Part shown: positions 2,233-8,281 of the stretch, piece by piece
Layout: each line of letters starts with the position of its first letter
Position numbering within the stretch: position 1 is the stretch's first letter
From: Promethearchaeota archaeon
GTDB lineage: Archaea > Asgardarchaeota > Lokiarchaeia > Sigyniarchaeales > SOKP01
Direction: 5' to 3'
Assembly: GCA_016839555.1 (NCBI GenBank)
Contig: JAEOUA010000005.1
Coordinates: forward strand, 32,001-96,000
Length of the DNA: 64,000 nt
Position numbers and translations under genes: made by a program
The notes under the pieces: generated by a model
The model's input: the letters and a program-made list of their open reading frames with translations, nothing else
Database searches by the model: none
Told to the model about the DNA's origin: nothing

Positions 2233-4293
2233 ATGGAGTCCTTTAAAAAAAAATTTAAGAAAATAGACTCTAATGTCGTTCTTTTGAGTATCCTATTTTT
2301 ATTCTTTTTGCAGTTGATATCAGATTTCTTAGAGACAATTTATGCTCTAAATTTAATTGAAGTAGAACTCAATGAAAATATTCTGGCGCTTTTATTCTTA
2401 TTAACTCCTATTATTTTATTGTTTTTCAAAAAGGGAGTTCCAGACAAATATATTGTCGTTATCGGAGAAATTTTGGTCATTTCGAGAATCTTAGAGGTGT
2501 TTTTCAATGGAACGGTGAAAATGGTTATTACGGGCATCGGGTCAGGAGTGTTTTTACTATTTTTTCCCCTTTATCTTCAAAAGCTCTCAATTGGAAATAA
2601 GGAAAAGTATGGAATAGAGTTTGGGTTAGGTCTCGCGATTGCAGTGTTACTCTCAATATTTTTTAGAGTTTTGGGTTCTTCGGTAGATATTTCAATTTTT
2701 AGTTGGTTTCAATCAATCGGGTGGATTTTAGCGATTATCGAGGCAATTCTTATATATAATATAATTAATCGTGAGGAATTTAAAGTAGCTTCTAGTTCTA
2801 ATAGTTCAAAAGAATATAGTAAACCTGTGAGTACTCTTAAAGTATTGGGATTATGCATCGGAATCATAGGAATAATCGTATTGATATATTTTGTATTCAG
2901 CAGTCCCACTGTGATTTCCCGATGGGCGGAAGGTAATTATTTTTCTATTATTTACCTTCTTGCTATTGAAATCTCGATATTTATTTTATTAATGGTCTAT
3001 AAGCCTGAATTATTAAACGCCCTAAAATTTTGGATGCTATTACTATGGAATGTTCTCTTTATATTTGCCCTTGTCGTATTAATTATGGTAAATCAAACAT
3101 TTTTTATCCTTGTAGAATATTATCCCGTGATTGCTGCTCCTACATCCCTATGGAGTTATATATTGTTATATATGATGTTAGCTCTTTCTCCCATAATTTT
3201 GATTGATTTCGTTTTACTGTCAAGAGAAATAATAAAAGGTCAACCATCAGTGCGAAAAATAGGCGGAAGCTTTACCGTTGCATCAGTAGTTTTTTTAATT
3301 CTTATCTTAGCAAATGTCTTCACCATCGTTTGGGATTATATTCCACTTATTGGTAATTTTTTCAGAGATATGTATTGGTTTGTATTTTTATTGACTGGAA
3401 TCTTCATAGCAATTCCCATATTATTAGTAAGAAAGAGTAGAGTTGATTTTACAACAGTATTTTCGAAGCTAAAAATAAAGCTCCTATTGACGGCAATAAT
3501 ATCAATTATTTTGAGCTCAGTTATCATTGTAGGATTTGTATTAAAATATCCTTACGAGCAACCTATTGGATTTGAACCTAATATTAGAGTATTATCTTAC
3601 AATATTCAGCAAGGATTTGATGAATCTGGGAATAAAAACTTCGAAGGGCAAACACAAGTGATATTAAAGGCGAATCCCACAATAATAGGGTTACAAGAAT
3701 CAGACACTTGTCGAATTTCAAGCGGAAATTTAGATATTGTAAGATATATTAATAATAGACTTGGTTATTATAGCTATTTTGGTCCAAAAACTACTACTGG
3801 CACTTTTGGTATCGCTTTATTATCCAAATATCCGATTCTTAACCCTAGAACATTTTACATGGAGACTAAGGGAGAACAAACAGCCACAATAGAGGCGCAA
3901 ATTATTATTAATGCAAAAATTTATTTTGTATACGTAACCCATTTGGGGAACTATAAACATCCCTTAATCGATCCATCGCAATATATAGAACAAGAACAAC
4001 TTTTACGTAGGATTGTAGGGAGAAAAAACGTTATTTTAATGGGAGATTTTAATTTTAACCCTAATACAGAACAGTATAACCTCACGACTACTCTATTAAA
4101 TGATTGTTGGGAAATTGCAAATACTAGCCTTATAGGGGATATTCCAATTGGGTGGCGATTTAGATTGCCTTATCTAAGAATAGACCATATCTTTGTCTCG
4201 GATGAGTTAAATACCTCAATTACTGGATGCTATTATTTTGGTGGCACTGCCTCAGATCATCCTGCGGTAGCGATTGACATTAGAGCATTCTAG
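2233..4293 (+). CDS. Polytopic membrane protein with C-terminal endonuclease/exonuclease/phosphatase (EEP) domain, Cwh43/PGAP2IP-like
   Basis: About 440 aa of hydrophobic helices, then SYNIQQG, GLQESD, GIALLSKYPI, THL, GDFN, IDHIF, SDH motifs. Confidence 0.8.
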   Translation: MESFKKKFKKIDSNVVLLSILFLFFLQLISDFLETIYALNLIEVELNENILALLFLLTPIILLFFKKGVPDKYIVVIGEILVISRILEVFFNGTVKMVITGIGSGVFLLFFPLYLQKLSIGNKEKYGIEFGLGLAIAVLLSIFFRVLGSSVDISIFSWFQSIGWILAIIEAILIYNIINREEFKVASSSNSSKEYSKPVSTLKVLGLCIGIIGIIVLIYFVFSSPTVISRWAEGNYFSIIYLLAIEISIFILLMVYKPELLNALKFWMLLLWNVLFIFALVVLIMVNQTFFILVEYYPVIAAPTSLWSYILLYMMLALSPIILIDFVLLSREIIKGQPSVRKIGGSFTVASVVFLILILANVFTIVWDYIPLIGNFFRDMYWFVFLLTGIFIAIPILLVRKSRVDFTTVFSKLKIKLLLTAIISIILSSVIIVGFVLKYPYEQPIGFEPNIRVLSYNIQQGFDESGNKNFEGQTQVILKANPTIIGLQESDTCRISSGNLDIVRYINNRLGYYSYFGPKTTTGTFGIALLSKYPILNPRTFYMETKGEQTATIEAQIIINAKIYFVYVTHLGNYKHPLIDPSQYIEQEQLLRRIVGRKNVILMGDFNFNPNTEQYNLTTTLLNDCWEIANTSLIGDIPIGWRFRLPYLRIDHIFVSDELNTSITGCYYFGGTASDHPAVAIDIRAF

Positions 4294-5048: not shown

Positions 5049-5252
5049 ATAAGTTTTCCATCTACTTATTTCTGAAATTGAAAATCCCCTTGTATCGTAA
5101 ATTAAAATTCTTTTTCATTTTACTATAATTATTAAATTGTTCAATTAAAAAAAATATAAAGAATTAAATAATTAAAAATATAGCTACTAATTTATATTAC
5201 GAGACTTGTTTTTAACCTCAAAAACGCACCGAATTTAAAAAAAACAGGGAAA

Positions 5253-6206
5253 ATGAGCAAAAAAATTATTATTATAGATCTTGGAACTTATAGCGTAAAG
5301 GTTGGGATAGCAGGAGCCGCAAAACCTCAATATAACATAAGAACTATAATGGGATATTCAAAGAATTCTGAACATCTCCTTTATGGAAATGAAGCATTAA
5401 AAAAGAGTCAAGAGCCGCTTCCATTAATAGATTATAAGTGGGATATCATGGAAATACGATGGAGTAAGATCTTCGAATTTTTTCGCTTTATTTTTGAGGA
5501 AAAATTAAGATTTTCTATCTCTGAATTGAAAAATTATTCTATTGTTTTTTTAATTGGTCCTTTACAACCGCGTTCTCATTTTTTAAAATATTATGAATCT
5601 TTTTTTTCTAAATTTAAAATAGCGAAAATGCTAGTTTTGTCAGCAACCAGGATTGCTTTATTAGCTTCAAGGAAAACAACGGGTATTGTTGTAGATATTG
5701 GATATAAATCAACTCGCGTTGTTCCTTTTTATGAGGGATTTAGACTTCCGCATGCGTTTAATCATCAAGATCTAGCTGGAAAAGATATTGATGATTATGA
5801 TGAAAATATTCTTGAATATCCCACAATTCCAGAGAAAGATTATCTCGCCCCAACTTCAGAATTAATTTTAAAAGCAATTGAAAGATGTGATGAGTCTATA
5901 AAAGATGAATTATATTCGAATATAATACTTTCGGGATGGTGGAGTGCAGATAAAAAAGTCGTAACTTTATTGAAAGAGTCATTGGAAAAAGAAAGGAGTG
6001 ATAAGGATATTAATGTCGTTATTCCTTCTTCTCATTATTATAACTGGTTTTCGGCTTCTCTACTAGCTACTAAAAAATTAAAGAAGATAGCAAAAATAAG
6101 GTATCTTTCAAAAAAAAAATACTATGCTAAGAAAGAATTAGATACTTATCTCACCCTTGCGGGTATTAAAACAAAAAAATGGGGTCTCATTTCATATCCA
6201 TTATGA
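5253..6206 (+). CDS. Divergent, internally deleted actin-related protein
   Basis: IDLGTYSVKVG (phosphate-1), TTGIVVDIGYKSTRVVPFYEG.RLPHA (phosphate-2), DLAGKDIDDY, CDESIKDELYSNIILSG, WFSASLLA. Confidence 0.85.
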   Translation: MSKKIIIIDLGTYSVKVGIAGAAKPQYNIRTIMGYSKNSEHLLYGNEALKKSQEPLPLIDYKWDIMEIRWSKIFEFFRFIFEEKLRFSISELKNYSIVFLIGPLQPRSHFLKYYESFFSKFKIAKMLVLSATRIALLASRKTTGIVVDIGYKSTRVVPFYEGFRLPHAFNHQDLAGKDIDDYDENILEYPTIPEKDYLAPTSELILKAIERCDESIKDELYSNIILSGWWSADKKVVTLLKESLEKERSDKDINVVIPSSHYYNWFSASLLATKKLKKIAKIRYLSKKKYYAKKELDTYLTLAGIKTKKWGLISYPL

Positions 6207-6418
6207 TTTGGAAAAGACTTTGGGAAAATGTGAATAATATCAAAAAAATTAGACTTAAAGAATTTTTTATTTTTAAATTAAGAAAATTATGATTTACCCA
6301 TCTATGAAGATTTAAATATTACTAAATTATTTTCTATATGTTTAAAAATTAAATTAACAAAATCATTTAATTAAGCAAACCTTTTAATTCAGAAAAAGTG
6401 ATTTATAAAGTGAGATAA

Positions 6419-7078
6419 ATGAGTTTAAAAAAGAATACCATAAAAAAAACAAAAAACCAAATTCTTACATTACTAATTGAACATTCAAGGATTATTTATA
6501 GCGTTATATCAGAGATGGGAGTATTTTATACCTCATGGAAAGAAAACCCTGAGGGAAATAAAGAAGAAATGGAAAAGAAGAAAAATAAATTACAAATGTT
6601 AGAAGAAGATGCAGATGCTATTAAAATAAGATTGATTAAAGAATTTTCCGAAGCAGGTACTCAAGGTATGGGGAATTATATGACCTTAATCTTACGGATG
6701 GATAATGTAATAAATTCTGCCTTAGAATTCGTTGATCTTTTATCAAAAATTCATAATCTCAATGAAATTAATAATAATATTGAGTCGCGGTATGACAAAC
6801 TTATAAATGAATTACTTAAAATGACAGATATTTTAAAATTAGCAATTAAAAATTTGCAAAATAAACCTCAAAAAGTGTTAGAAAATACGACCACAATCCA
6901 TGAAATCGAAAATGAAATCGATATAATATTCAGAGAATTTTTAGATTATTTATATGATAATGACAATATAAGTATTAGATTAATCTTCAGACTAAGAGAT
7001 AGTATTAAGGTTTTGGAGGAGCTTGCAGATAGAATACATGATATCGGAGATTTAATTAGAGTCATCAGATACTCTTAA
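6419..7078 (+). CDS. DUF47 / PhoU-like phosphate transport regulator
   Basis: Two helical repeats with LEEDADAIK and IHEIENEID...LEELADRIHD. Confidence 0.75.
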   Translation: MSLKKNTIKKTKNQILTLLIEHSRIIYSVISEMGVFYTSWKENPEGNKEEMEKKKNKLQMLEEDADAIKIRLIKEFSEAGTQGMGNYMTLILRMDNVINSALEFVDLLSKIHNLNEINNNIESRYDKLINELLKMTDILKLAIKNLQNKPQKVLENTTTIHEIENEIDIIFREFLDYLYDNDNISIRLIFRLRDSIKVLEELADRIHDIGDLIRVIRYS

Positions 7079-7243: not shown

Positions 7244-8281
7244 TTACCAGCGCCAATAAATATCCTCAGCATGACCAAGCATATTTTCGATATGGATTTT
7301 TTTTCCATCATCCAATATTATATCTCCTGAATAGAAACCATGCATTAAAGCAGAATTCAAATAGATAATACCAAAATTTAGTTTTTCTTTATGTGGAATA
7401 ATCGGTTCTATCACCATATTAAACCTGTCATCATTGCTCGTAAATTTCCATGGTTTGGTAGGATCACGATTCTCATGATGGAAAATAACCTCATCCAGCT
7501 TATGAGCTTTTCCATTATAAAAAACTATATTTTCAGTATGAGTTGCTCCTTCTTTGCTTCCCACTTGACCAAAACCATACCCAATATTAAACGCGACGGG
7601 AAGATCATTTACTTTGCCACAAGCACTTCCCCATAACCAATGTGTCTTATAGGGCCAAATTCCACGACCCCAATCCATTAATCCAAAGGATCTATCTGAT
7701 GTAAATTCATAATTCTCAGTACCAATTGTTATCTTACCTGTAGCAGGCATCATGTTAATTTTATGATTATAATAGAATAATTTGGGCTTTTCATAGCCCG
7801 TTATAACAACAGTATTATCCCATTCTGGTTTATCATCTAAAACGATGCTTCCTTCAATTCCTTTATCTAAAAATGTAGGATCATCGATAGTAAGGATTCT
7901 TTTATTCCCTTTTTTCTCTAAACTAGCATTAAAATCTTCCGTTGGGAATTCTATTAAGCTATCTTCTACTGAACTTTGGGGCAATAATTTAGCTTTCGTG
8001 AAGAATTTGAATGTACCTTTATTAAATCTTTCTTTTTTATTGAAATCAAGCCATACATAACTCATTTGTGTAAGATACCCGATATCTCCAATTGTTAATT
8101 GGATTCCAAAATCTTTATTTAAAATAGAATAATGATCCCATTCCTTTATTCTCCACCAGCTTTTTCCAATATTTTCTTTATTATATGTTATTATCGGTTT
8201 TTTTGCCCAACCCGTCTGAACAAGTGAGCCATCCTCATTAAAGAGCTTTGATGGTTCGGTTATTTCTATTTGTTTACCCAT
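7244..8281 (-). CDS. DUF2804 family protein
   Basis: RIKEWDHY, FYYNHKIN.MPA.G, MDWGRGIWPYKTHW.W, FNIGYGFG motifs. Confidence 0.8.
   Translation of the reverse strand: MGKQIEITEPSKLFNEDGSLVQTGWAKKPIITYNKENIGKSWWRIKEWDHYSILNKDFGIQLTIGDIGYLTQMSYVWLDFNKKERFNKGTFKFFTKAKLLPQSSVEDSLIEFPTEDFNASLEKKGNKRILTIDDPTFLDKGIEGSIVLDDKPEWDNTVVITGYEKPKLFYYNHKINMMPATGKITIGTENYEFTSDRSFGLMDWGRGIWPYKTHWLWGSACGKVNDLPVAFNIGYGFGQVGSKEGATHTENIVFYNGKAHKLDEVIFHHENRDPTKPWKFTSNDDRFNMVIEPIIPHKEKLNFGIIYLNSALMHGFYSGDIILDDGKKIHIENMLGHAEDIYWRW

Follow-up and report, generated by a model that had tools for sequence, protein, structure and literature searches.

What becomes of a eukaryote-type actin fold when one of its four subdomains is taken away? 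The question is raised by a gene of a Promethearchaeota archaeon whose product, an actin-family protein of 317 amino acids (P0001, hereafter the mini-actin), lacks subdomain 4. Coordinates are those of the window, the whole stretch of 64,000 nucleotides that was analyzed, unless another locus is named. The gene and the region in front of it are as follows:

5253-6206, + strand: gene for the 317-aa, subdomain-4-less actin-family protein, including the stop codon (open reading frame list and translation)
5049-5252, no strand assigned: AT-rich intergenic region of 204 bp, read directly from the sequence; putative promoter

Family membership and extent of the deletion

The reading frame begins with ATG and is open throughout its 317 codons. 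A preliminary description of the locus had read colinear actin motifs in the translation, and the profile search agrees: against the Pfam Actin model (PF00022) the mini-actin scores 112.6 bits (cut-off 27; E 2.2e-32), in two colinear stretches that place residues 4-190 on profile positions 5-190 and the C-terminal part on positions of about 305-385. It is, therefore, a true member of the actin family. Its best sequence matches in the PDB are eukaryotic actins and Arp1 (E 2e-24 to 1e-22); phmmer alignments to PDB actins equate residues 5 to about 190 with index 10 to about 200 of Plasmodium actin-1, and residues 206-274 with index 282-352. A match to the NCBIfam model named 'syringactin' (23 bits, cut-off 300) was dismissed because the C-terminal part of that profile fits the actin C-terminus and Lokiactin scores far higher; a literature search returned no paper on syringactin.

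A residue map was derived from HMMER alignments to Plasmodium actin-1 and from a MAFFT alignment with the genome's own actins, the two being mutually consistent. To obtain the rabbit actin number of a mini-actin residue, 2 is added at the N-terminus, 6 over residues 96-190, and 73 from residue 199 onward. In rabbit numbering, Y182 is the equivalent of actin Y188 and T201 that of I274, so that 18 residues stand where actin has 85, which is exactly the count first reported from the sequence. The features that define the truncation are:

5778-5822, + strand: surviving subdomain-4 stump, the helix equivalent to actin 182-195 (residues 176-190; HMMER and MAFFT alignments)
5823-5846, + strand: deletion junction, an 8-residue linker, TIPEKDYL (residues 191-198), in place of actin 197-271 (alignments)
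5355-5378, + strand: shortened, polar equivalent of the D-loop, YSKNSEHL (residues 35-42; alignments with PDB actins and the genome's own Lokiactin)

Subdomains 1, 2 and 3 are present, while subdomain 4 is reduced to its first helix and the linker. The lost segment takes in the subdomain-4 tip, K213/E214 and the hydrophobic plug. In actin, K213 and E214 bind the ribose, the tip makes longitudinal contacts, and the plug (actin 262-274) serves lateral contacts. The D-loop had been put at about half the length found in actin, and this holds: between the equivalents of actin G36 and Y53 the mini-actin has 8 residues, rabbit actin 16 and the genome's own Lokiactin 18. Judged by its sequence, then, the elements required for canonical F-actin contacts (hydrophobic D-loop, subdomain-4 tip and hydrophobic plug) are all missing or degenerate. 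The Pfam Actin profile detected no stand-alone subdomain-4 fragment in the genome, a search that a fragment so short could escape.

Structure prediction leads to the same picture. In an AlphaFold model computed from a 103-sequence alignment (pLDDT 94, pTM 0.92), subdomain 4 is absent, in keeping with the preliminary description. Helices 176-182 and 184-187 lead into a loop at residues 188-200, in which the linker has a pLDDT of 80-91, and the subdomain-3 helices follow. This model replaced that of an 8-sequence run, whose pLDDT was 70 overall and below 50 at the junction. An exhaustive structural search with the model returned Arp3 (Z 31.7) and actin (Z 31.6; rmsd 2.0 over 277 residues), then Arp8 and Arp4. 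Lower scores were obtained for Arp11 (5adx_J, Z 26.9), crenactin (25.1) and MreB (about 21), and the bacterial protein AlfA reached Z 17.3 over 231 residues.

A small and patchily distributed Asgard family

Seven full-length relatives (38-85% identity, 295-328 aa), originating from JGI, NCBI, ENA and Logan assemblies, were recovered from 5.8 billion protein clusters, and all have the deletion. A profile search of 1.84 billion representatives yielded no further relatives, since below 585 bits the next scores already belong to generic actins. The large libraries also contain short 'actins' of 313-333 aa; these are vertebrate splice-isoform predictions and were set aside. Scanning 185,579 species genomes revealed three further carriers, all of them Promethearchaeota/Promethearchaeia MAGs, and scans of JGI metagenomes gave two more loci; a scan of viral contigs found none. 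The relatives bear the database names 'actin-related protein' or 'hypothetical protein'. The boundaries are the same in about ten of them, which stem from Promethearchaeota (Lokiarchaeia) sequences assembled independently, and at least six independent assemblies carry an undamaged gene. The deletion is not peculiar to one assembly or strain, an outcome that would have spoken against the preliminary description.

The relatives fall into a main subgroup, 56-85% identical to P0001, and a divergent subgroup at 38-40%. The deletion boundaries are identical in both, and P190 and K195 are invariant in the alignment. The D-loop equivalent is the least conserved part of the family (conservation 0.56), with an insertion of four residues in one relative and a loss of 17 in another. 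In a phylogenetic tree, the mini-actins form a single clade (SH-aLRT 99) on a long stem, apart from Lokiactin and without a supported sister group. Purifying selection acts on the gene: dN/dS is 0.23 at a dS of 0.41 between P0001 and an 81%-identical orthologue, and 0.3-0.47 in deeper pairs that are partly saturated. Both the loss of subdomain 4 and the short D-loop go back to the ancestor of this small Asgard family and are under selection.

Within Asgard archaea, carriers are rare (4 of 400 species genomes) and scattered. The divergent type occurs in two other species of the same genus, the distribution being patchy even inside that genus. The main type was also found in one genome of another family of the order, on a 4.4-kb contig that is perhaps mis-binned. 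None of the carriers was seen to have both types. The family also evolves rapidly: within the genus, Lokiactins share 97-99% identity and mini-actins 39%; in the comparison with the other family, the values are 88-92% and 63%. Among the genes of shared loci the mini-actin is the fastest-evolving, with 59% identity in one locus against 77-82% for its neighbours.

Two copies are damaged. One divergent mini-actin (L039:5989-6926, genome G277; also proteins P0011 and P0009) is cut by one TAG and one TAA into open reading frames of 129 aa and 175 aa and is likely a pseudogene in that species. A 56%-identical relative (L014:6001-6909) has TGA at the codon of a conserved tail Trp, behind which the tail GLISYSL is still in frame; its protein sequence, present in two independent assemblies, is missing a further 17 residues of subdomain 2.

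The genome that encodes P0001 holds five other actin-family genes, two of the Lokiactin type, one of them at L001:1474-2616, and three Arps, all with subdomain 4. One actin-related paralogue of 500 aa, encoded outside the window (L004:1477-2979, + strand; contig C4 of G000, about 193254-194756), shows in alignment a zinc-ribbon-like insert of ~90 residues with many CxxC pairs, placed after the last subdomain-3 strand and before the W340 helix.

The nucleotide-binding site

Three segments of the mini-actin correspond to the nucleotide-contacting loops of actin:

5265-5306, + strand: phosphate-1 region, IIIIDLGTYSVKVG (residues 5-18), in which D9, G11 and K16 are the equivalents of actin D11, G13 and K18 and Y13 replaces G15
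5685-5726, + strand: phosphate-2 region (residues 145-158), assessed by column counts against 90 other actins/Arps
5919-5948, + strand: altered adenosine motif, NIILSGWWSA (residues 223-232), in which G228 is the equivalent of actin G301, W229 replaces G302 and W230 replaces T303

The DxG motifs of both phosphate regions and the equivalent of K18 are retained (D9, G11, K16, D148 and G150). In the phosphate-1 region, D9, G11, Y13 and K16 are invariant, and the mean within-family conservation is 0.83. The phosphate-2 region is the best-conserved segment of the family (0.88); it keeps D148 and G150 and has an invariant K152 in place of actin G158 and R155 in place of H161. Upstream of it, A131 occupies the position of Q137, at which the family has A or V. 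Q137 and H161 are the catalytic residues of actin. The adenosine loop is conserved within the family (0.82) in an altered form. The change of LSGG to LSGW, already noticed when the sequence was first read, lies at S227-G228-W229-W230 and abolishes the GG doublet: at the position of G302, 10 of the 11 family members have W, while 89 of 90 other actins/Arps have G.

Two of these changes are specific to the family in the comparison with 90 actins/Arps, W229 and K152, the latter never being the common residue elsewhere. Some full-length Arps likewise have the equivalents of Y13 and R155, and Y stands at the position of Y13 in 16 of 88 full-length actins/Arps. Altogether, 53 residues are invariant across relatives of 38-85% identity; concentrated in the nucleotide loops, they include in the alignment S153, T154 and R155 next to K152, as well as G228 and W229. 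Because the core of the nucleotide site is the most constrained part of the protein, we infer that the mini-actin still binds nucleotide, in a rebuilt adenine pocket, and because the equivalents of Q137 and H161 are lost, its hydrolysis is predicted to be poor.

The C-terminal region and the subdomain 1/3 face

The end of the protein has diverged from actin:

6075-6203, + strand: divergent C-terminal region (residues 275-317), consisting of a lineage-specific Lys-rich stretch and then the tail AGIKTKKWGLISYPL

The tail, which comprises the last 15 residues, is conserved among members of the main subgroup; a beta-hairpin is predicted for it, with strands at 304-307 and 311-314 in the model. That the C-terminus is rich in lysine had been observed correctly: the last 50 residues of P0001 contain 14 K+R against 2 D+E, and the pI of the protein is 9.4. 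The idea built upon it, that a basic tail gives the protein an affinity for membrane or nucleic acid, does not hold as a function of the family, since the pI of the relatives ranges from 6.3 to 9.4 and the basic tail is a property of one lineage.

The cleft between subdomains 1 and 3 is of mixed character. Its upper walls (actin 139-150 and 165-174) are the segments closest to Lokiactin, with 50-60% identity against 30% overall. In the C-terminal helices that floor the cleft (residues 275-300), which are Lys-rich here, identity to Lokiactin amounts to 5%.

Genomic context

The intergenic region at 5049-5252 is common to the mini-actin gene and a divergently transcribed VIT1-family gene, and a T-rich stretch lies 3' of the mini-actin stop codon at about 6262-6275. 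Just downstream (6419-7078, + strand) is a gene for a DUF47/PhoU_div-like helical protein, better conserved than the mini-actin. It belongs to the core gene set of the taxonomic family as a whole, being found in 120 of 134 genomes and accompanied by a second paralogue in many; a functional tie between the two was rejected because of this wide occurrence and because, elsewhere, no mini-actin adjoins it. The mini-actin and the same neighbours are syntenic on a related 1.17-Mb contig. Beyond close relatives the neighbours differ, and in the loci compared we found no partner gene kept beside the mini-actin. Likewise, none of the mini-actin loci examined showed a partner resembling an adaptor or a centromere, or a plasmid or viral setting.

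The divergent mini-actins (L012:5445-9243, L038:5415-9231 and L039:5269-8648) always have, on the same strand, a gene for an AsnC-type regulator on one side and one for a thermosome (Cpn60/TCP1) subunit on the other. The eukaryotic chaperonin CCT folds actin; the three loci come from related genomes, and the arrangement may be plain synteny.

Other genes of the region deserve a brief record. A 686-aa multi-pass membrane protein (2233-4293, + strand) carries at its C-terminus a PGAP2IP/CWH43-type nuclease-like (EEP) domain (PF23226, E 2e-22), an architecture that resembles that of eukaryotic GPI-anchor remodelling proteins. A DUF2804 gene (7244-8281, - strand) adjoins a gene for an FAD-dependent oxidoreductase; on the related 1.17-Mb contig, a second DUF2804 paralogue (35% identical; L009:10625-11641) follows just past the oxidoreductase gene.

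Possible roles of the mini-actin

The role that we favour, tentatively and with somewhat less than even confidence, is that of a nucleotide-binding and canonically non-polymerising Arp which docks on Lokiactin pointed ends or monomers by means of its retained subdomain 1/3 face. One ancestral deletion took away subdomain 4 (actin 197-271) and half of the D-loop, leaving subdomains 1 and 3, most of subdomain 2, and the phosphate-binding loops. With the subdomain-4 residues K213/E214 gone and G302 replaced by Trp, the adenine pocket is rebuilt, and a nucleotide may still be bound there but would be poorly hydrolysed. As a terminal or monomeric subunit, the protein would place its subdomain 1/3 (barbed) face on the subdomain 2/4 face of Lokiactin, and the two Lokiactin-type actins of the same genome are possible partners. 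Lokiactin pointed ends might in this way be capped or destabilised, or monomers sequestered, much as Arp11 ends the Arp1 filament of dynactin.

Several observations shape this proposal. Canonical strand propagation is probably impossible for the mini-actin because the pointed-end face is lacking, there being no subdomain IIB (subdomain 4), a short polar D-loop and no plug. Since the helices of the cleft floor are Lys-rich and share so little with Lokiactin, the canonical docking site for a D-loop may itself be absent. For the same reason, with only the upper cleft walls resembling Lokiactin, the earlier suggestion of a decoy for profilin or gelsolin is uncertain. The small number of carriers, together with split or TGA-truncated copies, favours a dispensable accessory role over that of a core cytoskeletal regulator.

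It is possible, if somewhat unlikely, that the mini-actin has left the cytoskeleton altogether or is decaying, whether as a nucleotide-dependent or -independent scaffold for some other partner, as a conflict-driven decoy of Lokiactin, or as an eroding accessory gene. Nuclear Arps do serve as scaffolds, and the tempo of evolution fits such a reading: the mini-actin is 59% identical where its flanking genes are 77-82% identical, and 39-63% identical where Lokiactin is 88-99% identical, with dN/dS rising to 0.3-0.47 in the deeper, partly saturated pairs. So do the patchy occurrence within the genus, the one copy split by stop codons, the one truncated by TGA at the tail Trp, and the loss of the adenosine-contacting glycine. 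The reading is harder to reconcile with 53 invariant residues, mostly in the nucleotide loops, with a dN/dS clearly below 1, and with a gene that is intact in at least six independent assemblies; nor did any copy turn up on viral contigs.

A self-polymerising minimal actin appears distinctly unlikely, yet it is the reading that cautions most against a simple argument from the deletion. The preliminary description had reasoned that a protein without subdomain 4 would be non-polymerising. This does not follow, for AlfA, which is devoid of the same subdomain, forms ATP-dependent filaments and holds its adenine between two aromatic residues (10.1101/190744), and it is this precedent that keeps self-assembly alive as a rival. 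By analogy, new longitudinal and lateral contacts could build a non-canonical filament of the mini-actin's own, with the adenine held by Y13 and W229/W230. Y13 is invariant at the position of an AlfA aromatic residue, the gain of W229 is specific to the family, conservation is strong in the phosphate loops, and the AlfA structure can be aligned with the mini-actin model. Nevertheless, AlfA makes its longitudinal contact with the D-loop of subdomain IB, the equivalent of which is short, polar, poorly conserved and prone to indels in the mini-actins. The tyrosine is not tied to the deletion, occurring as it does in full-length actins/Arps, the catalytic Q137 and H161 are replaced, and the loci offer neither an adaptor- or centromere-like partner nor a plasmid or viral setting.

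An artefact is highly improbable, whether the contig was mis-assembled or chimeric or a deletion or pseudogene arose recently in one strain: nothing beyond its prior speaks for it in a source MAG of 12 contigs and 6.4% estimated contamination, and against it stand the open frame, purifying selection, the synteny on the 1.17-Mb contig, and deletion boundaries that recur in three other GTDB species genomes as well as in assemblies of JGI, NCBI, ENA and Logan.

Taken to its furthest, the favoured docking model would make the mini-actin the first member of the eukaryote-type actin/Arp clade with a natural loss of subdomain 4, a dedicated pointed-end terminator, or a sequesterer, of Lokiactin with an AlfA-like aromatic clamp (Y13 and W229). 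We regard this full combination as doubtful. Were it true, the protein would be a one-protein archaeal counterpart of Arp11 or tropomodulin, and filament-end control by a crippled actin paralogue would have arisen in Asgard archaea independently of eukaryotes. If Lokiactin is bound, the mini-actin would be the first candidate for an Asgard filament-end regulator that is itself an actin paralogue, and it could become a tool for studies of Lokiactin dynamics; if the protein polymerises by itself, a new minimal filament architecture would be at hand. The family would represent the second, independent loss of this subdomain and the first among the relatives that eukaryotic actin has in archaea. 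As a natural experiment, it bears on what the actin fold can do without its pointed-end face. Rarity, fast evolution and decay in some lineages limit the generality of its importance.

Comparison with known systems

The mini-actin shares with actin and Lokiactin (PF00022) the ASKHA actin fold, colinear subdomains 1, 2 and 3, the DxG motifs, and the equivalents of K18 and W340. It differs from them in the absence of subdomain 4 (actin 197-271), in a polar D-loop that is 8 to 10 residues shorter, in the replacement of GG by GW, Q137 by A, H161 by R and G158 by K, in a divergent and extended C-terminus, and in a much faster rate of evolution. With 30% identity to the genome's own Lokiactin and a separate, long-stemmed clade, it falls outside the Lokiactin clade, whose members are 88-99% conserved in the same genomes.

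The literature searched holds no description of an Asgard actin without subdomain 4. 'Ca. Lokiarchaeum ossiferum' is reported to have, besides Lokiactin, three ARPs of unknown function (PMC9834061). Akin to these, the mini-actin is a divergent, patchy paralogue in Lokiarchaeia, and its genome has three further such paralogues; unlike the mini-actin, the other paralogues of this genome measure 371-500 aa and have subdomain 4.

With respect to the deletion itself, the nearest parallel is AlfA of the Bacillus subtilis plasmid pLS32 (PDB 6f95). In actin and ParM, longitudinal contacts run from subdomains IB/IIB of one subunit to IA/IIA of the next; AlfA lacks IIB, yet assembles into ATP-hydrolysing double-helical filaments, and its authors considered the loss of IIB unique among known actin-like proteins (10.1101/190744). 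The mini-actin likewise has no IIB, and its Y13 matches the AlfA aromatic that lies two positions past the phosphate-1 Gly (10.1101/190744). In other respects the two differ. AlfA, a ParM-like protein of bacteria that serves in plasmid segregation, is unrelated to the mini-actin; its GG doublet is intact, and its partners are AlfB and parN, counterparts of which do not occur near the mini-actin gene. It matches the model at a Z of only 17.3, where actin and Arps reach about 31. AlfA and the mini-actin lost the subdomain independently.

In terms of proposed function, the closest comparison is with Arp11 (Arp10; ACTR10), which closes off the dynactin filament at its pointed end (PMC3583065, PMC8047447). 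Unlike the mini-actin, Arp11 is a four-subdomain protein, and p62, p25 and p27 fix it in position. Orthology is not indicated, as 5adx_J scores below Arp3, actin, Arp8 and Arp4, and the tree gives the mini-actins no supported sister. What Arp11 may offer is a working model, that of a divergent Arp which sits as the terminal subunit at a pointed end and does not propagate the filament.
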